Shown here one piece after another: positions 5 to 10,379 of a DNA stretch of 14,261 bases. Made by a program: the position numbers and the translations under genes. The DNA lies in UHGV virus genome UHGV-0247634. The stretch is one strand, 5' to 3'. Positions within the stretch are counted from its first letter, which is position 1; each line of letters begins with the position of its first letter. The stretch comes from a virus. The notes beneath the pieces are model-generated. The model was not told the DNA's origin, did not search any database, and saw only the letters and a list, made by a program, of their open reading frames with translations.

Positions 5-280
5 ATGTTAAGTAACCTTCCCGGATTGCTGAATGTGGCGTTATGCACGGTTATCGTGCTGACGCTCTTTTTTTATCGTCGTCGTGACTCCAGACACAAA
101 CCGCTGATGTCATGGCTGGCCTGGCTGCTGATGCTGCTGTATGCCTTTGCGCCCCTCAGCTATCTGTGTGGTCGCCCGTTAGCAACGGGCTGGCTGGAAG
201 TGTTTTTTAACCTGCTGTTCTGCGTGCTGGTGATACGCGCACGCGGGAACGTCACAAAAATCTTTCCATTGTTGAGGTGA
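5..280 (+). CDS. putative holin (three predicted TM segments); N-terminus may extend beyond window start
   Basis: 91-aa ORF with three hydrophobic stretches (LPGLLNVALCTVIVLTLFFY, LMSWLAWLLMLLYAFAPL, WLEVFFNLLFCVLVI) separated by short basic loops. Stop TGA 278-280 lies in the SD/start region of the downstream peptidase gene, the usual holin-endolysin arrangement. Only 4 nt upstream are visible, so the start cannot be verified. Confidence 0.55.
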   Translation: MLSNLPGLLNVALCTVIVLTLFFYRRRDSRHKPLMSWLAWLLMLLYAFAPLSYLCGRPLATGWLEVFFNLLFCVLVIRARGNVTKIFPLLR

Positions 281-285
281 ATATG

Positions 286-663
286 ATGCCGGGTAAATTC
301 AGATTCAGCCGTCGCAGTGAAAAAAATCTGGAGGGCGTCAAACCACAGCTGGTTGCTGTCGTTCGCCGTGCGCTGGAGCTGACGGAGGTTGATTTTGGTA
401 TCACGGAAGGTCTGCGCAGTAAGTATCGCCAGAAACAGCTGGTAGCGGCAGGGAAAAGCCAGACCATGAACAGCCGCCACCTTACAGGTGATGCGGTGGA
501 TGTTGTGGCCTACATTGGCAGCCAGGTGTCATGGGACTGGCCTCTGTACGAGAAAATCGCGCAGGCATTTAAGCAGGCTGCCGCAGAGCTGGGAACTGCC
601 ATCGAATGGGGCGGGGACTGGAAAACACTGAAAGACGGGCCTCACTTTCAGTTGAAACGCTGA
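286..663 (+). CDS. endolysin, L-alanyl-D-glutamate peptidase (peptidase M15 / VanY-like, T5-endolysin type)
   Basis: Motifs SRHLTGDAVD and GPHFQL match the Zn-binding H-x-x-G-x-A-x-D and C-terminal His motifs of M15 endolysins as I recall them. Start ambiguous: GTG 277, ATG 283 or ATG 286; SD GAGGT at 274-278 favours ATG 286. Positioned between a putative holin and a lipoprotein. Confidence 0.85.
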   Translation: MPGKFRFSRRSEKNLEGVKPQLVAVVRRALELTEVDFGITEGLRSKYRQKQLVAAGKSQTMNSRHLTGDAVDVVAYIGSQVSWDWPLYEKIAQAFKQAAAELGTAIEWGGDWKTLKDGPHFQLKR

Positions 664-677
664 TAACCAGGTGTGTT

Positions 678-860
678 ATGAGCAGAAAACACTGGACACA
701 CAGAATGCCGCGAACGGCGGCGAAATGGGCACTGGTAGCGATACTGGTGCCTTTTTTCCTGGTGGGATGCGTCAGCCTGGATAAGGCGCGCCAGCTTTTC
801 GATACAGCTTCTCAGGTCTGTGAAATTGTCGACGGTGTCCGGCAGTGTATGCAGAACTGA
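678..860 (+). CDS. small secreted lipoprotein, possible o-spanin-like lysis accessory protein
   Basis: 60-aa ORF with a basic n-region (MSRKHWTHRMPRTAAK), hydrophobic h-region (WALVAILVPFFLVG) and lipobox L-V-G-C. Predicted mature peptide is about 30 aa with three Cys. Lies immediately downstream of the endolysin. The ORF-track version from 606 overlaps the endolysin and has no N-terminal signal, so ATG 678 is preferred. Confidence 0.55.
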   Translation: MSRKHWTHRMPRTAAKWALVAILVPFFLVGCVSLDKARQLFDTASQVCEIVDGVRQCMQN

Positions 861-892
861 TCGCCTGATAATTGTTTTACTAAGGAGAAATG

Positions 893-1081
893 ATGGAATC
901 GCCAATTATGAAATATTTCAATTATGAGCATCTTCCGACTTCGTTAAAGGAAGTGAGTAAGCCAATTGGTGATCTGGCAAGAGTAATGGATGAATCTTTG
1001 CCAGACGGTCCGGAAAAGTCGGCTGGGTTACGTAAATTGCTTGAAGCAAAAGATGCTCTGGTGCGAGCGAAACTGGGTTAA
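893..1081 (+). CDS. hypothetical small soluble protein (moron candidate)
   Basis: 62-aa ORF (MESPIMKYFNYEHLP...) with SD AGGAG at 883-887 and ATG 893. About 43% GC by hand count, visibly lower than flanking late genes. No TM segment; C-terminal amphipathic helix-like stretch (LRKLLEAKDALVRAKLG). Followed by a strong hairpin. No family recognised. Confidence 0.45.
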   Translation: MESPIMKYFNYEHLPTSLKEVSKPIGDLARVMDESLPDGPEKSAGLRKLLEAKDALVRAKLG

Positions 1082-1090
1082 GGCATTACA

Positions 1091-1114
1091 GCAGCCCTTC
1101 AGCCGAGGGGCTGC
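1091..1114. terminator. stem-loop between convergent genes, candidate bidirectional terminator
   Basis: gcagcccttc (1091-1100) pairs with gaggggctgc (1105-1114), a 10-bp stem with one G-U pair and loop agcc. It sits between the stop of the + strand ORF (1081) and the stop of the - strand ORF (1124). No clean U-tract on either side, so termination efficiency is uncertain. Confidence 0.4.
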
Positions 1115-1123
1115 AATAATGCT

Positions 1124-1330
1124 TTAGTTGTCTTTCATAAATCCTTTAATGACCCATCCCACAAGCCTGGTGATGCTGTACACAAACAAGGCAATTATCA
1201 GAGATACAAGGATATCAAACAGTGAGAATCCTTGCGTATCCGTTGTTGAAAATAAAAGACTAAAGATGAACACCAGAATGGCCAACAGAATACCTACCCG
1301 GTGAAAGCCTTTAGAAATCATGTTTTTCAT
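1124..1330 (-). CDS. hypothetical small membrane protein, two predicted TM helices (antisense moron)
   Basis: 68-aa ORF (MKNMISKGFHRVGILLAILVFIFSLLF...DILVSLIIALFVYSITRLVGWVI...) with two hydrophobic helices and a basic C-terminus. SD GGAGGA is 4 nt upstream of the ATG on the - strand. About 38% GC by hand count. It is the only convincing gene on the - strand, in the position where lambda carries the antisense bor moron. Confidence 0.55.
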   Translation of the reverse strand: MKNMISKGFHRVGILLAILVFIFSLLFSTTDTQGFSLFDILVSLIIALFVYSITRLVGWVIKGFMKDN

Positions 1331-1391
1331 TTGTCCTCCATATTTGTTTTTTTAAAGGGTGGGCATTTTAACATCAGAAGGATGAAGTTCT

Positions 1392-1742
1392 ATGCCATCA
1401 CGAATACCCCGCGCCTGCCGTAAGCGTGGATGCGCAGGTACAACCACAGACAGTTCTGGTTACTGCGATAAACATCGTGGTGAAGGATGGGCACAGCACC
1501 AGCGCGGACTGAGCCGCCACCAGCGTGGCTATGGCTCAAAATGGACGGTGATTCGTGCCCGTATTCTGAAGCGCGATAAAGGTCTGTGTCAGTTGTGTCT
1601 GCGTGTCGGTGTGGTGAGCGAGGCGAAAACCGTCGACCACATCATCCCGAAAGCGCATGGCGGGACAGACGCAGACAGCAACCTGCAGAGTCTGTGCTGG
1701 CCCTGCCACAAAGTGAAAACAGCGCGCGAACGAATCAGGTGA
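1392..1742 (+). CDS. HNH endonuclease, terminase-associated type
   Basis: 116-aa ORF with Cys-rich zinc-finger-like pairs (CRKRGC...CDKH, CQLCL, CWPCH) and HNH core DHIIPKAHGG...N...H. Located directly upstream of the putative cos region and terminase genes, as in HK97-like packaging modules. Confidence 0.9.
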   Translation: MPSRIPRACRKRGCAGTTTDSSGYCDKHRGEGWAQHQRGLSRHQRGYGSKWTVIRARILKRDKGLCQLCLRVGVVSEAKTVDHIIPKAHGGTDADSNLQSLCWPCHKVKTARERIR

Positions 1743-1889
1743 TAATTATTCTCACTTGTGGGGAGGGGCGGGTCAAATCCCTGCAGCCCTGGCTGTCCGG
1801 GACCGCCCGCCAACCCTTCTTCGCATCGCCGCAGGTTCGAAAACTTTTTTTTGGGAATGCGATCAAACGATTGATAGGTAAAACCGATT
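1743..1889. other. putative cos / terminase recognition region
   Basis: 147-bp non-coding gap between the HNH gene and the small terminase gene. G/C-rich core with imperfect inverted repeat GGGCGGGTC (1765-1773) and GACCGCCCGC (1801-1810), a T8 run (1846-1853), and an IHF-core-like ATCAAacgaTTG (1862-1873). Exact cohesive-end position cannot be determined from sequence alone. Confidence 0.4.
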
Positions 1890-2372
1890 ATGTCAGGACC
1901 CCCGAAAACCCCGCCACGCCTGCATTTGATACGAGGCAACCCCTCAAAGCGCCCCGTTAAAGACCCAAAAAAAACCGCTAAAAAGGATGAAAAAGGTCTC
2001 CCTAAAATTCCGCAGCATTTAGGGGTGCAGGGGAAGTACTGGTTCAGGCGAATGGCGGAAGAACTGAATGCGGAAGGGATCATTTCTCAGCTTGATGCGC
2101 GTGCACTCGAGTTACTGGTGGAAGCCTACACCGAATACCGGCATCACTGCGAAACACTTGATGCTGAGGGTTATACCTACCGCACGGAAACGCAGAACGG
2201 TGATGTGCTGATTAAGGCACACCCGGCTGCTGCGATGAAAGCGGATGCCTGGAAGCGGATCCGGGCGATGCTTGCAGAGTTTGGTATGTCACCGGCAAGC
2301 CGGGCGAAAGTAAATACCGCCGGACCGGATGATGTTGATCCGCTGGCGGAACTTTTAAAAGCGAGAGACTGA
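1890..2372 (+). CDS. terminase small subunit, P27 family
   Basis: 160-aa ORF. N-terminus MSGPPKTPPRLHLIRGNPSKRPVKDPKK matches the characteristic GRPPKP...L.GNPGKRP signature of P27-family small terminases as I recall it. Stop overlaps the large terminase start (ATGA at 2370-2374). Confidence 0.85.
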   Translation: MSGPPKTPPRLHLIRGNPSKRPVKDPKKTAKKDEKGLPKIPQHLGVQGKYWFRRMAEELNAEGIISQLDARALELLVEAYTEYRHHCETLDAEGYTYRTETQNGDVLIKAHPAAAMKADAWKRIRAMLAEFGMSPASRAKVNTAGPDDVDPLAELLKARD

Positions 2373-4129
2373 TGGCAAAAGTGGCTGACGGGATCCGCTA
2401 CGCCGAACGTGTTGTTGCAGGAGAAATTGTCGCTGGCGAATTTGTCCGTCTGGCCTGCCAGCGTTTTCTTGATGATCTGAAGTACGGCGAAGAGCGGGGG
2501 ATTTATTTCAGTGAACCCCGTGCGCAGCACATCCTGAATTTCTACAAATTTGTGCCCCATGTAAAAGGGGCGCTGGCAGGCCAGCCCATTGAACTGATGG
2601 ACTGGCATGTATTTATCCTCATTAATATTTTTGGTTTTGTCATTCCGCTGGTCAATGAAGAGACCGGGGAAGTTGTCATGCGCAGCGATGGCAGCGGACG
2701 TCCGGTGATGGTGCGCCGGTTCCGGACGGCGTACAACGAAGTCGCCCGTAAAAACGCAAAATCAACCCTGTCATCGGGTATCGGCCTGTATATGACGGGG
2801 GCAGATGGTGAAGGCGGGGCTGAGGTGTATTCAGCTGCAACCACGCGTGACCAGGCCAGAATTGTGTTTGAAGACGCCAAAAATATGGTCAGAAAAGCCC
2901 GGTCGACACTCGGGCGATTGTTTGATTTCAACAAGCTGGCGATTTACCAGGAGCAGAGCGCATCAAAATTTGAACCGCTTTCCTCGGATGCAAACAACCT
3001 GGACGGTCTGAACATCCACTGCGCCATTATTGATGAGCTGCATGCACATAAAACCCGTGATGTGTGGGATGTTCTGGAAACGGCAACCGGTGCCCGTCTG
3101 CAGTCCCTGTTATTTGGTATCACCACGGCAGGCTTTAACAAGGAAGGGATCTGTTACGAGCAGCGTGATTACGCCATTAAGGTATTGCGTGGCTATAACA
3201 GCAACGTGGAGGGCGCGGTAAAAGACGACTCCTACTTTGCGATCATTTACACGCTCGATGAGGGAGATGATCCGTTTGATGAAACGGTCTGGCAGAAAGC
3301 GAATCCCGGCCTGGGCATCTGTAAACGCTGGGATGATCTGCGTCGTCTGGCGAAAAAAGCGAAGGAGCAGGTTTCAGCGCGGGTGAATTTTTTCACGAAA
3401 CACATGAATGTGTGGGTCACTGCCGAATCTGCCTGGATGGACATGATTAAGTGGGAGAAGTGCGAATATATTGCTCCACAGCATGAGCTGAAAACCTATC
3501 CCATGTGGGTCGGCGTCGACCTTGCTCATAAGATTGATATCTGTGCGGCGGCAAAACTCTGGCGAACCGATAACGGACATGTTCATGCTGATTTTAAATT
3601 CTGGCTCCCGGAAGGACGGCTGGAGCGGTGCTCGCGGCAGCAGGCAGAACTTTACCGGAAATGGGCCGAGATGGATAAGCTCATCCTGACGGATGGTGAT
3701 GTTATCGATCATGCTCAGATAAAAAGTGACTTACTGGAATGGATTGGTGGTGAAAACCTGAGGGAGCTGGGATTTGATCCGTGGAGCGCGATGCAGTTCA
3801 GTCTGGCGCTGGCTGAAGAAGGGATACCGCTGGTGGAGGTTCCGCAGACGGTCCGCAATCTGTCAGAGGCCATGAAGGAAACGGAATCACTGGTCTATGC
3901 CGGGCGTTTCCATCACAGCAATCACCCGGTCATGAACTGGATGATGTCTAACGTTACGGTAAAACCGGACAAAAACGACAATATCTTCCCGAACAAATCC
4001 ACGCCGGAAGCCAAAATCGACGGTCCTGTTGCGATGTTTACAGCAATGAGCCGGATGCTGGTCAATGGCGGTGAACCGGAGCCGGATCTGTCTGAGCATC
4101 TGGTCAGCGTTGGTATCCGCTCGCTTTAA
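2372..4129 (+). CDS. terminase large subunit (ATPase plus nuclease)
   Basis: 585-aa ORF immediately after the small terminase. Walker B-like hhhhDE ([10 protein letters not shown]) in the N-terminal half and an acidic RNase H-like nuclease motif ([12 protein letters not shown]) in the C-terminal half. Size and position typical of TerL. Confidence 0.93.
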
Positions 4130-4140
4130 CCGAGGTCATT

Positions 4141-4323
4141 ATGTTTCTGATAATTCTCACACCACTGGTTGGCGTGCTGGGGGCGCTTTTGCTGTCGTAT
4201 GGCACATGGCTGATTTATCCCCCGGCAGGTTTTGTTGTTGCCGGGGCGCTGTGCCTGTTCTGGTCGTGGCTGGTTGCTCGTTATCTCGATCGCGGTCAGC
4301 GGGTCGCCTCCGGAGGTGAGTAA
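4141..4323 (+). CDS. hypothetical small membrane protein (two predicted TM helices) between terminase and portal
   Basis: 60-aa ORF ([49 protein letters not shown]...) with GC-rich third-position codon pattern like neighbouring genes. Stop TAA overlaps the portal ATG (TAATG at 4321-4325). No family recognised. Confidence 0.5.
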
Positions 4324-5564
4324 TGTTTTTCCAGGGGCTTTTTCAACGCAAAAATAACACTCCCGTTACAACACCCGGGATGCTTGCGGAAGAGCTGGGA
4401 TTGTCATACGACACCTATACCGGAAAGCGGATCAGCAGTCAGCGGGCCATGCGGCTGACGGCGGTTTATTCCTGCGTCAGGGTGCTGGCGGAGTCTGTTG
4501 GTATGCTGCCCTGCAGTCTCTACAAAATCACCGGCACCCTTAAAACACGCGCGGTGGATGAACGACTGCATAAGCTGATTTCGGCAAAACCCAATGGCTA
4601 CATGACGCCGCAGGAATTCTGGGAACTGGTCATTGTCTGCCTGTGTCTGCGGGGGAATTTTTACGCCTACAAGGTGAAGGCGCTGGGGGAAGTTGTGGAG
4701 CTTCTTCCGATAGATCCGGGCTGTGTGGAACCGAAGCTGAACAGCCAGTGGCAGCCGGTTTATCAGGTGACGTTTCCGGATGGCTCCGTGGATGTGCTGA
4801 CCCAGAATGAAATCTGGCATGTGCGCACTCTGACGCTGGACGGACTGGTCGGGCTGAATCCCATTGCGTATGCGCGTGAGGCCATTTCACTGGCAGCGGC
4901 AACTGAGGAGCACGGCGCCAGGTTGTTTGGTAACGGCGCTGTGACATCCGGTGTGTTGCGTACGGATCAACAACTTTCTGATCAGGCTTATGCGCGTATC
5001 AAAAAGGACTTTGAGGAACGGCATGTCGGGCTGGGAAATTCTCATCGTCCGATGATTCTGGAAATGGGGCTGGACTGGAAAACGGTGGCACTGAATGCCG
5101 AGGACAGCCAGTTCCTGGAAACCCGCAAGTTTCAGCTGGAAGAAATCTGTCGCCTGTTCCGCGTGCCGCTGCATATGGTGCAGAACACCGATCGCGCCAC
5201 CTTCAACAATATTGAAGAGCTGGGGCTTGGTTTCATTAACTATTCCCTTGTGCCGTATCTGACCCGTATTGAACAGCGGATCAATACAGGGCTGGTCAGG
5301 GAGAGCAAGCAGGGGAAGTTTTACGCCAAATTTAATGCCGGAGCATTGTTGCGTGGCGACATGAAATCCCGCTTTGAAGCGTATGCCACGGGGATCAACT
5401 GGGGGATTTATTCCCCTAATGACTGCCGTGATCTGGAAGATATGAATCCCCGACCGGGCGGTGATGTGTATCTGACACCGATGAACATGACCACCAGTCC
5501 CTCTGCTGGCGATGACAACGGTAAGAAAAAGGAGAGTGGAGATGCAGACAAAACAGCGTCTTGA
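4323..5564 (+). CDS. portal protein, HK97 family
   Basis: 413-aa ORF directly downstream of the large terminase and upstream of the prohead protease; SD GGAGGT precedes the ATG. Size and gene order match HK97-type portal proteins. Confidence 0.88.
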   Translation: MFFQGLFQRKNNTPVTTPGMLAEELGLSYDTYTGKRISSQRAMRLTAVYSCVRVLAESVGMLPCSLYKITGTLKTRAVDERLHKLISAKPNGYMTPQEFWELVIVCLCLRGNFYAYKVKALGEVVELLPIDPGCVEPKLNSQWQPVYQVTFPDGSVDVLTQNEIWHVRTLTLDGLVGLNPIAYAREAISLAAATEEHGARLFGNGAVTSGVLRTDQQLSDQAYARIKKDFEERHVGLGNSHRPMILEMGLDWKTVALNAEDSQFLETRKFQLEEICRLFRVPLHMVQNTDRATFNNIEELGLGFINYSLVPYLTRIEQRINTGLVRESKQGKFYAKFNAGALLRGDMKSRFEAYATGINWGIYSPNDCRDLEDMNPRPGGDVYLTPMNMTTSPSAGDDNGKKKESGDADKTAS

Positions 5565-6192
5565 TATACCGCTGAACCTGAAATCCGTCAGTGATTCCGG
5601 GGAATTTGAAGGTTACGGTTCTGTTTTTGGTGTTAAGGACAGCCACGATGATGTGGTGGTCCCCGGAGCCTTTACCACAACACTCCAGAAATGGAGCGAA
5701 AAAAAGGCGCTGCCTGCGTTGCTCTGGCAGCACCGCATGGATGAGCCCATCGGTGTGTACACCGAAATGAAAGAAGACGATGTCGGGCTTTATGTCAGGG
5801 GGCGATTACTCGTTGATGATGATCCCCTGGCAAAACGTGCACATGCCCATATGAAGGCCGGTTCTTTAACCGGCCTTTCTATTGGCTACATCCTGAAAGA
5901 CTGGGAGTACGACCGTGAAAAAGGGGTATTCCTGCTGAAAGAGATCGACCTGTGGGAGGTCAGTCTGGTGACGTTTCCTTCCAATGATGAGGCACGCATC
6001 AGCGATGTGAAAAATGCGCTGGCGCGTGGGGAGATCCCTGATCAGAAAATTATTGAGCGAGTCCTGCGCGATGTTGGACTCTCGCGAACCCAGGCCAAAG
6101 CATTCATGGCCGGGGGATATGGCGCTTTATCCCTGCGTGATGCTGAGGATGTGGATGCCGCACTGAATGCACTGAAAAATCTTAAATTTTAA
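5542..6192 (+). CDS. prohead maturation protease, HK97 family (peptidase S78/U35)
   Basis: N-terminal region MQTKQRLDIPLNLKSVSDSGEFEGYGSVFGVKDSHDDVVVPGAF is characteristic of HK97 gp4-type prohead proteases. Start chosen at ATG 5542 with SD AGGAG at 5531-5535; the ORF-track start at 5512 is an in-frame upstream extension. Overlaps the portal 3' end by 23 nt. Confidence 0.88.
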   Translation: MQTKQRLDIPLNLKSVSDSGEFEGYGSVFGVKDSHDDVVVPGAFTTTLQKWSEKKALPALLWQHRMDEPIGVYTEMKEDDVGLYVRGRLLVDDDPLAKRAHAHMKAGSLTGLSIGYILKDWEYDREKGVFLLKEIDLWEVSLVTFPSNDEARISDVKNALARGEIPDQKIIERVLRDVGLSRTQAKAFMAGGYGALSLRDAEDVDAALNALKNLKF

Positions 6193-6205
6193 TCAGGAGT
6201 AAATA

Positions 6206-7432
6206 ATGGCTGTTGATATTAAAGACGTGGAACAGGTCGCGCAGGATTTGCAGCAGAAGTTTGACGATTTTAAGGAAAAAAACGACAAACGCATTGACGC
6301 GATCGAGCAGGAAAAGGGAAAACTTGCCGGAGAAGTGGAAAACCTCAACGAAAAACTGACTGAACTGGAGAACCTGAAAAGCGACCTGGAAAAAGAGCTG
6401 GCAGACATCAAGCGTCCGGCAGGCGGCACGCAAAATAAAGTTGCCAGTGAACACAAAGAAGCGTTTATCGGATTTATGCGCAAGGGGCGTGAAGACGGTC
6501 TGCGTGAGCTTGAGCGTAAGGCGCTGCAGGTGGGCAATGATGAAGATGGTGGTTATGCCATTCCGGAAGAACTGGATCGCACTATTCTGACGCTGCTGAA
6601 AGATGAGGTAGTGATGCGCCAGGAAGCCTCTGTGATCACCCTCGGTGGCTCGGATTATAAAAAACTGGTGAATCTGGGCGGCACAACGTCCGGATGGGTG
6701 GGGGAAACGGATGCACGTCCGGAAACCGCCACCTCAAAACTGGGGCTGATTGAACCCTTTATGGGGGAAATCTACGGCAACCCGCAGGCCACCCAGAAAA
6801 TGCTCGATGACGCTTTCTTCAATGTGGAAGACTGGATCAACAGTGAGCTGGCGCTGGAATTTGCCGAACAGGAAGAAATTGCCTTTACCAGTGGCGACGG
6901 CAGCAAAAAACCAAAAGGTTTTCTGGCTTATGAGTCCACCGATGAAGATGACAAGACCCGTGCGTTTGGCAAACTTCAGCACATTGCTTCCGGTGCGGCT
7001 TCCGGCGTGACTGCCGATGCGATCATTAAACTGATTTACACCCTGCGCAAGGCGCATCGCAGCGGCGCGAAGTTCATGATGAACAACAGCAGCCTGTTTG
7101 CCATTCGTCTGCTGAAGGATAACGACGGAAATTATCTGTGGCGTCCGGGTATTGAGCTGGGTCAGCCTTCTTCTCTGGCAGGGTATGGCATCGTTGAGAA
7201 TGAACAGATGCCGGATATTGCTGCCGATGCAAAAGCCATTGCGTTTGGTAACTTCAAACGTGGCTATACCATCGTTGATCGCATCGGTACCCGTATCCTG
7301 CGCGATCCGTACACCAATAAACCGTTTGTGGGTTTTTATACCACCAAGCGAACCGGCGGTATGCTGGTGGATTCTCAGGCGATTAAGCTGATGAAAATTG
7401 GGGCTGCAACCCGCCAGAAAGCCGCTGCGTAA
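6206..7432 (+). CDS. major capsid protein, HK97 fold, with N-terminal coiled-coil scaffolding (delta) domain
   Basis: 408-aa ORF after the protease. First ~70 residues are charged and heptad-like (DLQQKFDDFKEKNDKRIDAIEQEKGKLAGEVENLNEKLTELENLKSDLEKELADIK), typical of the delta domain in HK97-type capsid proteins; no separate scaffold gene is present. SD AGGAG at 6195-6199. Confidence 0.9.
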   Translation: MAVDIKDVEQVAQDLQQKFDDFKEKNDKRIDAIEQEKGKLAGEVENLNEKLTELENLKSDLEKELADIKRPAGGTQNKVASEHKEAFIGFMRKGREDGLRELERKALQVGNDEDGGYAIPEELDRTILTLLKDEVVMRQEASVITLGGSDYKKLVNLGGTTSGWVGETDARPETATSKLGLIEPFMGEIYGNPQATQKMLDDAFFNVEDWINSELALEFAEQEEIAFTSGDGSKKPKGFLAYESTDEDDKTRAFGKLQHIASGAASGVTADAIIKLIYTLRKAHRSGAKFMMNNSSLFAIRLLKDNDGNYLWRPGIELGQPSSLAGYGIVENEQMPDIAADAKAIAFGNFKRGYTIVDRIGTRILRDPYTNKPFVGFYTTKRTGGMLVDSQAIKLMKIGAATRQKAAA

Positions 7433-8986: not shown

Positions 8987-9691
8987 ATGTCCTCTAATTT
9001 TGAGCGTTCGCAACTGACGAAAATTATGATTTCGTCTGCACCGGTAACAGCAGAAACCCTGGATTCTGCCAGCTATCTTGGCCTGAGCTGTACAATCAAA
9101 GAGGTGCAGTTTACCGCAGGACAAAAGCAGGATATTGATGTCACCACGCTGTGTTCTGTTGAGCAGGAAAATATTAACGGTCTTGGTGCCGCGTCAGAGA
9201 TTTCCATGTCAGGCAACTTTTACCTTAATGCTGCCCAGAACGCGTTGCGCAGTGCCTATGACAATGACACCACGTATGGCTTTAAAGTTATTTTTCCGTC
9301 AGGAAACGGATTTACCTTTATGGCAGAGGTGCGTCAGCATACCTGGTCTGCAGGAACCAATGGTGTTGTGGCTGCAACGTTTTCCCTGCGCCTGAAAGGT
9401 AAACCTGTGCTGACGACAGAGCCGCTGAAAGTGAAGGTAGATTTAAACAGCACGCTGCAGGTTTCTGCCGGAGCGAAACTCGAAATGGTGGTTGAGGCTG
9501 CCGGTGGTGTGCCGCCTTATTCTTATGTCTGGAAGAAAGGTAGTTCTCCTGTTTCCGGACAGACGGCGGCAACGTTCAGTAAGGCATCAGCAGCATCCGG
9601 TGATGCCGGTGCGTATACCTGCGAGATTTCTGATTCAGCAAGCCCGGTTAACAAAGTGACCACCACTTCCTGCACTGTAACCGTCAGTTAA
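8987..9691 (+). CDS. major tail (tube) protein with C-terminal Ig-like domain
   Basis: 234-aa ORF with SD AGGAG 8976-8980. The N-terminal ~140 aa has a tail-tube-like region (GFKVIFPSGNGFTFMAEV, reminiscent of lambda gpV KIRFPNGT). The C-terminal ~90 aa resembles an Ig-like domain (VKVDLNSTLQVSAG...GGVPPYSYVWKKG...AGAYTCEISDSA...CTVTVS). Immediately precedes the G/GT chaperone genes. Confidence 0.8.
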   Translation: MSSNFERSQLTKIMISSAPVTAETLDSASYLGLSCTIKEVQFTAGQKQDIDVTTLCSVEQENINGLGAASEISMSGNFYLNAAQNALRSAYDNDTTYGFKVIFPSGNGFTFMAEVRQHTWSAGTNGVVAATFSLRLKGKPVLTTEPLKVKVDLNSTLQVSAGAKLEMVVEAAGGVPPYSYVWKKGSSPVSGQTAATFSKASAASGDAGAYTCEISDSASPVNKVTTTSCTVTVS

Positions 9692-10077
9692 TGAGGATGG
9701 ATGTGATGACTAAAAATATCCGTAATCTTGCACTGGCAACGATGTCGGGGTTTCGCCATAAAACCGTTGATGTGCCTGAATGGGAGGGAGCAACGGTTGT
9801 GTTACGGGAACCTTCTGCAGAAGCCTGGTTGCGCTGGCAGGAGATCGTTAAAGCCAGGGAAGATGATACATCGCCATCTGTTGCAGAGCGTGCCCGCCGA
9901 AATCTGGAGGCGGACGTTGAGCTGTTCATTGATGTTCTGTGTGATACCGGGCTGCAACCCGTATTTTCAGAGGATGATCGTGAACAGGTGATTGCCGTGT
10001 ATGGCCCGGTGCATGCCCGGCTTCTTCGCCAGTCTCTGGAACTGATCAGTGATGCCGGAGAGGTTAAAAAAAAGTAG
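9691..10077 (+). CDS. tail assembly chaperone (gpG-like)
   Basis: ORF between the major tail and tape measure genes, ending in a slippery A-run. Alternative start ATG 9706 has SD GAGGA at 9693-9697; ATG 9691 overlaps the upstream stop (TAATG). Confidence 0.75.
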   Translation: MRMDVMTKNIRNLALATMSGFRHKTVDVPEWEGATVVLREPSAEAWLRWQEIVKAREDDTSPSVAERARRNLEADVELFIDVLCDTGLQPVFSEDDREQVIAVYGPVHARLLRQSLELISDAGEVKKK

Positions 10078-10379
10078 CGCTTCCGGGGATGCGTTTTCTG
10101 ATGATGCTGGCGCTCAGGATGGGGCGCACATTGTCAGAGTTACGCCGGGAAATGTCCGCATCAGAAATCATGATGTGGGCAGAATTTGACAGGTTCAGCC
10201 CGCTGGGGGACGAACGGGCTGATATCCGGGCTGCCCAGATTGTTTCAGCTGTTTACGGTGCGCAGGGGGTTAAAGTACCACTGAATGATGTGCTTCTTCA
10301 GTGGGAGCAGGAGCAGACAGAAGGCGCCTCAGATCCATTTGCCGGGCTGGAAAACGCGCTTTTAACCGTGTCTCAGTGA
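9691..10379 (+). CDS. tail assembly chaperone frameshift fusion (gpGT-like), produced by -1 ribosomal frameshift at 10068-10074
   Basis: The zero-frame codons AAA AAG (10069-10074), preceded by A at 10068, form the slippery heptamer A_AAA_AAG just before the G stop (TAG 10075-10077). The -1 frame is open from 10074 through the downstream ORF to its stop at 10379. The distal part (MRFLMMLALRMGRTLSELRREMSASEIMMWAEFDRFSPLGDERADIRAAQIVSAV) resembles the lambda gpT family. Confidence 0.7.
10068..10074 (+). promoter_or_regulatory. programmed -1 ribosomal frameshift slippery heptamer A_AAA_AAG
   Basis: Same heptamer type as the E. coli dnaX frameshift site, located at the 3' end of the gpG-like ORF with the downstream ORF in the -1 frame. 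Confidence 0.65.

Follow-up and report, generated by a model that had tools for sequence, protein, structure and literature searches.

The 60-codon open reading frame (ORF) that lies between the genes for the large terminase subunit (TerL) and the portal protein in the window, the 14,261-nucleotide stretch of DNA from virus genome UHGV-0247634 analysed here, is shown by comparison with related loci to be a genuine and conserved coding gene. The copy in the window is an unremarkable allele in a family of phage membrane proteins that is catalogued and already known but uncharacterised. To judge from the sequences of the loci that we sampled in Proteobacteria, Firmicutes, Actinobacteria and Chloroflexi, this family almost always lies immediately upstream of a portal gene of the PF04860 type. 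It is very probable that the following features hold jointly: the product is a 60-aa inner-membrane hairpin with cytoplasmic termini, it is expressed from the late operon, and its translation is probably coupled to that of the portal.

The TerL-portal junction

In the window, the small ORF forms part of a late operon that begins with an M15 endolysin, an HNH endonuclease, a P27-type small terminase (TerS) and TerL and that continues, after the small ORF and the portal gene, with an S78 prohead protease, an HK97-fold capsid protein, connectors and a lambda/HK97-like non-contractile tail. The features at the junction are listed here by window coordinates.

2372..4129 (+): TerL gene, the upstream neighbour (Pfam TerL_nuclease, E 3.8e-52; TerL_ATPase, E 1.9e-27)
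4132..4135 (+): GAGG, Shine-Dalgarno-like, 5 nt 5' of the small ORF ATG (sequence reading)
4141..4323 (+): small membrane-protein gene, 60 aa, PHROG 502, homologue of phiP27 L37 (HMM match, frame-specific purifying selection)
4312..4319 (+): GGAGGTGA, Shine-Dalgarno site of the portal gene, within the last codons of the small ORF (sequence reading)
4321..4325 (+): TAATG overlap of small ORF stop and portal start, one shared base (sequence reading)
4323..5564 (+): portal gene, HK97-type, PF04860, the constant downstream partner (Pfam Phage_portal, E 6.3e-107)

TerL ends with a TAA at 4127-4129, which leaves a spacer of 11 nt before the ATG of the small ORF at 4141; in enterobacterial relatives, this spacer is 11-13 nt long. 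At the downstream end, the TAA of the small ORF (4321-4323) does overlap the portal start, as a preliminary description of the locus had stated, and among relatives the overlap takes the form TAATG, TAGTG or TGATG. The portal site GGAGGTGA falls within codons 58-60 of the small ORF, the final four codons being dictated by the portal ribosome-binding site, and a GGAGG-like purine-rich stretch was kept at this junction in both enterobacterial and Pseudomonas-type relatives. The overlap of stop and start suggests that the small ORF is expressed together with the portal, and we infer from the sequence that the two are translationally coupled.

We found no promoter belonging to the small ORF itself, the sole promoter-like match (4126-4154) straddling its start codon, and no terminator of its own, the terminator-like matches being weak and lying inside the ORF. 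The GC content of the small ORF was 0.583 and its GC3 was 0.60, compared with a GC3 of 0.585 for TerL and 0.622 for the portal gene.

Two further observations concern other parts of the window. The longest ORF for the protease shares 53 nt with the 3' end of the portal gene (5512..5564); relatives annotate a later protease start (window position 5542), which gives a 23-nt overlap with the portal. In the tail region, the run GTTAAAAAAAAGTAG occupies positions 10060-10077 at the end of the gene for a gpG-like tail chaperone (Phage_TAC_1, ORF 9691..10077), and an ORF matching Phage_tail_T (10089..10379) follows 3' of it in another frame. This run looks like a conserved -1 frameshift site that would give the G-T fusion of lambda-like tails.

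Conservation of the reading frame

An open frame of 60 codons is expected by chance in about 5% of cases ((61/64)^60), so the ORF alone proves little and we relied on comparison. Across 63 distinct enterobacterial loci, pN/pS was 0.43 in the annotated frame and 0.29 over codons 1-46, which encode the membrane core, whereas the same nucleotides read in the two other frames gave 0.94 and 1.37. Constraint was weak over codons 47-60 (pN/pS of about 0.7); the portal gene, for comparison, had a pN/pS of 0.13. The frame was intact in 125 out of the first 127 loci examined, the others being a frameshifted copy in Shigella (L021) and a copy cut by the end of its contig (L042). Conservation of the frame in relatives, which the preliminary description had proposed as a check on its reading, was thus observed, with purifying selection in the annotated frame only. 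An alternative ORF of 84 aa (4065..4319) and the remaining frames were rejected on the basis of the off-frame pN/pS values (0.94-1.37) and, for the 84-aa ORF, a null result in PHROGs.

These comparisons also bear on the possibility that the peptide has no function, the ORF being either an annotation artefact or only a spacer or coupling element through which translation of the portal is set. Selection on the amino acids of the annotated frame alone argues against this idea, as do the near-invariance of the family motif across phyla and the structure of the junction RNA, which did not exceed that of shuffled controls (z = -0.37 and +0.36) and had no Rfam match. A spacer would be consistent with the use of the last codons as the portal ribosome-binding site, with the weak GTG at which, in half of the enteric lineage, the portal starts in overlap with the stop, and with the direct coupling of the portal to the TerL stop in phages that have no small ORF. 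We consider this explanation very improbable. A candidate RNA hairpin that would mask the portal ribosome-binding site (TCGCCT-CCGG-AGGTGA, 4304-4319) was likewise rejected: it was no better than shuffled sequence (z = -0.37), and the fold is not common to phiP27.

At four-fold sites in 64 enteric loci, diversity was 0.153 in the core of the small ORF (4141..4278), a value based on 18 sites only, and 0.30 in the portal gene (4323..5561). This roughly halved diversity is accounted for neither by RNA structure nor by an Rfam element, for which the search of the small ORF gave no match. One segment of the portal gene had a similarly low diversity at third positions, and the low value for the core may be noise or a product of recombination history.

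Membership of a catalogued family

The 60-aa product matched the PHROG 502 "membrane protein" HMM with an E value of 1.6e-25 (89.4 bits), residues 1-54 aligning with positions 3-56 of the 58 in the profile, and distant members of other phyla matched the same profile with E values of 1e-12 to 1e-16. Counterparts occur in phiP27 (L37, NP_543089), ST64B (Sb3), phiKO2 (Gp3), SfI, SfII and 118970_sal3, where they are named "membrane protein" or similarly, and the identity of the small protein to its phage homologues is 77-85%. The homologues in phiP27, ST64B, SfI/SfII and phiKO2 share its length, its hairpin and its slot between TerL and portal, with no substantial difference. In E. coli genomes, the PGAP/RefSeq label is hypothetical protein, and the index of the public assembly collection places the identical 60-aa protein in 252 blocks. 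Given these labels and PHROG 502, the suggestion in the preliminary description that the gene might be unannotated has to be dropped. The homologue does lack annotation in SfIV (NC_022749) and PY54 (NC_005069); in the SfIV paper, the portal is numbered orf-3 and the small ORF is skipped.

GenBank records ON470580, ON470603, ON470584 and PQ793804 give the homologue the label "head-tail joining protein W". Lambda gpW is a soluble head-completion protein, whereas the small protein is predicted to be a hydrophobic hairpin, with a GRAVY of +1.09. The search against the Pfam gpW family reported no match at E values up to 1, although beyond about 0.1 most matches are removed by the HMMER filters. Because of this result and the hydrophobic nature of the protein, we take the label to be a positional mis-annotation.

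A profile search of 1.84 billion representative proteins (E up to 1e-3, clustering at 50% identity) returned 503 clusters with a median length of 61 aa; the hairpin family is large and old. The sequences that we inspected share the core YGAW[LM][IV]Y.PAG[FY]I..G between two hydrophobic segments, and the turn motif GAW[LM]IY.PAGF recurred among sequences retrieved by a profile search independent of the motif. Searches by sequence in Pfam, NCBIfam, PADLOC and PDB sequences yielded no characterised relative. Foldseek searches against the PDB and BFVD gave no fold link to a characterised protein, with at most uncharacterised phage proteins among the matches, and we found no functional statement on the small ORF or its family in the literature.

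The same slot between TerL and portal is occupied in other E. coli phages (vB_EcoS-640R1, Evi and PhiR49_2) by members of PHROG 7105, which are of similar size (53 aa) and have a similar two-segment hydrophobic profile. PHROG 7105 differs from PHROG 502 in accompanying a different portal type and in its turn, which reads YAGLPAS instead of YPPAGF. The PHROG 7105 ORF gave a secondary match to PHROG 502 (E 1.3e-6), although hydrophobic composition may inflate this apparent kinship. In vB_EcoS-640R1 (L127, 4027..4188) and eight related phage records, the PHROG 7105 ORF overlaps both of its neighbours.

Predicted structure of the small protein

AlphaFold2 predicted helices at residues 2-25 and 27-57 of the 60-aa protein with a mean pLDDT of 78.7, and the hydropathy profile showed two hydrophobic segments (GRAVY +1.09). 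According to these models, the protein is a helical hairpin in the membrane; together with the coordinates, they bear out the earlier view of the ORF between TerL and portal as encoding a protein with two transmembrane segments. The segments of the protein, in window coordinates, are given below.

4144..4215 (+): predicted transmembrane helix 1, residues 2-25, glycine-rich, with G11, G14 and G21 invariant (AlphaFold2, hydropathy, alignment columns)
4216..4230 (+): tight turn Y26-P-P-A-G30, where conservation in the family is highest (motif GAW[LM]IY.PAGF), invariant in alignment A1
4231..4278 (+): transmembrane helix 2, residues 31-46, predicted (AlphaFold2, hydropathy, alignment A1)
4279..4320 (+): C-terminal tail, residues 47-60, basic, poorly conserved and predicted to be cytoplasmic (pN/pS, positive-inside rule)

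Within helix 2, residues G35, C38, L39, W41 and S42 are invariant in alignment A1. The tail differs between relatives, most close relatives ending in GG[EDK]. From the arginines that follow helix 2 and the positive-inside rule, both termini are likely to be cytoplasmic.

Two other readings of the conserved residues were considered. A lipoprotein was rejected, since the conserved Cys38 lies in the context G-A-L-C, which is not a lipobox. Stalling at the two prolines of the turn, as in an arrest peptide, was deemed unlikely, since in distant members the first proline is often replaced by E, K, H, R or A; in these members, the P-A-G of the turn is kept much more often than the first proline.

Tandem fusions of two hairpins, 102-122 aa long, occur naturally (P0153, P0178 and P0264) and hint at self-association. 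The AlphaFold2 model of the double-hairpin fusion P0178 had a pTM of 0.31, too low for the packing of the two hairpins to be read from it. Among the 150 best family representatives, we found no fusion to the portal protein or to TerL.

Position across phages and linkage to the portal gene

Scans of genomes and of IMG/VR yielded 123 loci, which were selected by motif and not by position. Almost all of them had the small ORF directly after TerL, with its stop overlapping or abutting the portal start, and in nearly all loci the portal gene was its downstream neighbour. Portal-adjacent members in the Gamma-, Beta- and Alphaproteobacteria included those of Burkholderiaceae, Massilia, Reyranella, Shinella and Sphingopyxis; others came from Ruminococcaceae, Yanshouia, Micromonospora and a Dehalococcoidia MAG. 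Four Reyranella loci (L031, L041, L043 and L044) contain extra DNA between TerL and portal, and in these the ORF remains at the portal. In two exceptions, L219 and L040, no recognisable portal adjoins the ORF, but the prohead protease gene still follows it at a distance of one or two genes. The ORF in L219 (1500..1808) encodes the double hairpin P0178, two genes 5' of an S78 prohead protease and with no recognisable portal beside it.

One of the loci with extra DNA, L044 from a Reyranellaceae MAG, has an ORF with a TerL match (39..2480) that encodes 813 aa starting with MGALSVGDMVIDADG. This ORF may contain an intein or other insertion.

Comparison of the window with related phages indicated that TerL types swap while the small ORF and the portal gene stay together. 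The phiP27 match to the window begins just upstream of the small ORF, whereas other phages match TerL and then diverge. Across 61 distinct loci, the divergence of the small ORF correlated with that of the first 180 nt of the portal gene with a rho of 0.83, compared with 0.56 for the last 180 nt of TerL, and discordant pairs numbered 42 on the TerL side versus 12 on the portal side. This tight linkage of ORF and portal could reflect the overlapping stop and start, which leave no room for recombination.

The head block at 1392..7432 (HNH-TerS-TerL-small ORF-portal-protease-capsid) reassorts among E. coli prophages with an identical small protein, being joined to sheathed tails in L002, L213 and L217 and to lambda-like tails in L214, L215 and L218. 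In some E. coli genomes, the identical small protein and sheathed (myovirus) tails are accompanied by a holin_8/holin_3_7/M15 lysis cassette; in others, where the tails are lambda-like (siphovirus), the cassette is holin_2_1/lysozyme/Rz, the holin_2_1 cassettes sitting upstream of the packaging genes. This reassortment indicates that the small ORF is part of the head module irrespective of the type of tail or holin, and the association of an identical protein with different tails and lysis cassettes counts against a tail-specific or holin-specific role.

A lysis-related or membrane-energetics function, in which a holin- or antiholin-like hairpin would tune lysis timing or membrane potential, is affected by the same observations. 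Class II holins are small proteins with two transmembrane helices, termini inside and a charged C-terminus, and they are expressed late. The small protein has the gross features of this class, including termini that are predicted to lie inside, and its first transmembrane helix is glycine-rich. However, the resemblance is superficial: no holin family in Pfam or PHROGs matched, the small ORF lies about 3 kb from a lysis cassette that is complete without it, and two unrelated holin sets, holin_8/holin_3_7 and holin_2_1, accompany the identical protein. Close relatives have Phage_holin_8 and Phage_holin_3_7 together with the M15 peptidase, which in the window is encoded at 277..663. We regard a role in lysis as improbable.

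Presence and absence among relatives

HK97 has no ORF between TerL and portal, the stop of the former overlapping the start of the latter, so the direct order of terminase and portal that the preliminary description ascribed to HK97-type modules holds for HK97 itself. The same description called a membrane-protein gene in the head operon unexpected, which is not the case for this lineage: a homologue was present in 28 out of 28 phage records whose portal was 78% identical or more, and among IMG/VR loci with the enteric portal type, the small ORF was found in all 46 that could be assessed. Pseudomonas phage D14E has no small ORF, although VW-6S, with which it shares 80% identity in the portal, carries a hairpin ORF of 63 aa. 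In the D14E-like clade in IMG/VR, eight loci were without the ORF and five had it, always as a clean cassette; among loci with portals about 36-40% identical to that of D14E, 1 out of 19 gave a weak match. Absence from HK97 and from phages with an 80% identical portal indicates that the small ORF is dispensable and not generally required.

In Streptococcus phage Javan191 (L132, 1674..2308), a DinJ/Doc toxin-antitoxin pair lies between TerL and portal. The TerL-portal junction therefore accepts unrelated cargo.

HK97 gp15-type morons are small inner-membrane proteins encoded within the late structural operons of temperate phages. The small ORF is like these morons and exclusion proteins in the kind and location of its product and in its patchy occurrence among relatives. 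It is unlike them in having no promoter or terminator and no composition contrast, in occurring across phyla and in being independent of the tail. The suggestion that the gene might be a moron is consequently a poor fit: of the features by which morons are recognised (Hendrix/Juhala), the clean presence and absence in relatives was observed, whereas a promoter or terminator of its own and a distinct composition were not, and the position of the gene is kept across phyla.

The main rival to a function in the head module is nevertheless a host-directed, moron-like membrane effector that is carried along in the late operon and has no role in assembly; it might, for example, exclude superinfecting phages or modulate one of the membrane proteins of the host. 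Exclusion is typically the work of small membrane proteins, and HK97 gp15 blocks DNA entry at the inner membrane. Such an effector would be consistent with the clean presence and absence at the junction among close relatives, with the unrelated DinJ/Doc cargo that the junction holds in Javan191 and with the PHROGs category of PHROG 502, which is "moron, auxiliary metabolic gene and host takeover"; the named carrier phages of known lifestyle are all temperate, which also fits. The gene has no promoter or terminator of its own, however, and its base composition equals that of its neighbours. In addition, motif and position are kept across four phyla with very different envelopes, whereas exclusion targets are usually phage- and host-specific, and the identical protein accompanies myovirus and siphovirus tails with no co-variation with the injection machinery. 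No PADLOC defence model matched the small protein. We consider a host-directed effector somewhat unlikely.

A possible accessory role in the head/portal module

Our preferred reading, which we put forward tentatively, is that the small protein may be a late, non-essential inner-membrane accessory factor of the head/portal module. What favours an accessory head/portal role is the conservation of the protein across hosts with very different envelopes, always accompanying the same portal family, together with its place at the portal even where other DNA intervenes after TerL, the closer tracking of portal than of TerL divergence, the indifference to tail and holin type, and the position near the prohead protease in L219 and L040. 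Counting against it are the dispensability of the gene, the searches by sequence and fold, which gave no link to a characterised protein, and the failure to find a fusion to portal or TerL among the 150 best representatives. Moreover, a soluble portal could be reached only by the cytoplasmic tail, whose poor conservation, with its end partly dictated by the portal ribosome-binding site, weakens the case for a role at the portal. HK97-type heads are not known to assemble on the membrane.

As an accessory factor of this kind, the small ORF (X) would be transcribed and translated within the late HNH-TerS-TerL-X-portal-protease-capsid operon, and ribosomes that had just finished with it would probably translate the portal. 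The predicted topology would place both termini in the cytoplasm, joined by a very short outer turn, YPPAG. The protein would then act within the membrane, possibly as a self-associating oligomer; conservation lies almost wholly in the helices and the turn and not in the soluble tail, which makes action inside the membrane most likely. One possibility is that initiation of the portal or prohead, or else the packaging of DNA, is positioned or stabilised at the cytoplasmic membrane by the hairpin.

A further alternative is that the protein leaves the cell with the virion, as an internal or ejection (pilot) protein that is produced in a 1:1 ratio to the portal, travels at the portal or in the head and inserts in the membrane of the recipient. 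The overlap of stop and start suggests that it is made in portal-like amounts, the gene is tied to the head module and not to tail type, and an oligomeric channel could be built from hydrophobic hairpins that contain small-residue motifs. A nearly all-hydrophobic protein would be hard to keep soluble in a capsid, however, and close relatives with similar portals have no small ORF. There was no sequence match to any solved PDB structure, and we found no virion proteomics in the literature that reported the small protein. An ejection role thus has a low probability in our estimation.

For the membrane-associated accessory factor that we prefer, a functional analogy may exist in T4, where the viral chaperone gp40 is needed by gp20, the membrane-bound portal initiator (PMC9958956). 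The proposed analogy is one of function alone, namely a phage factor that links portal initiation to the inner membrane; no sequence relationship is known between gp40 and the small protein, and the T4 portal belongs to a different family. T4 gene 40 is also not known to be adjacent to gene 20.

A more far-reaching version of the accessory role, which we think unlikely, is that the PHROG 502 hairpin is an overlooked, ancient component of the HK97-type head module that is made alongside the portal, self-assembles in the membrane and tethers or nucleates portal or prohead assembly or packaging. It might do so as a ring of hairpins in the cytoplasmic membrane, perhaps matching the portal dodecamer.

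Implications

The single gene matters little, being annotated as hypothetical and identical in many E. coli genomes, and its annotation can be corrected: it is not gpW, not unannotated and not a typical moron. The family is more interesting, as a hairpin of about 60 aa with a near-invariant turn lies directly 5' of HK97-type portals in at least four phyla, and we found no study of it. If the hairpin is instead a host-directed effector, its conservation across phyla would point to a universal membrane target. If it connects the membrane with packaging or the assembly of the head, one of the best-studied assembly pathways would gain a component. Should it prove to be a membrane tether, assembly initiated at the membrane in the manner of T4 would extend to a large class of temperate phages across phyla.
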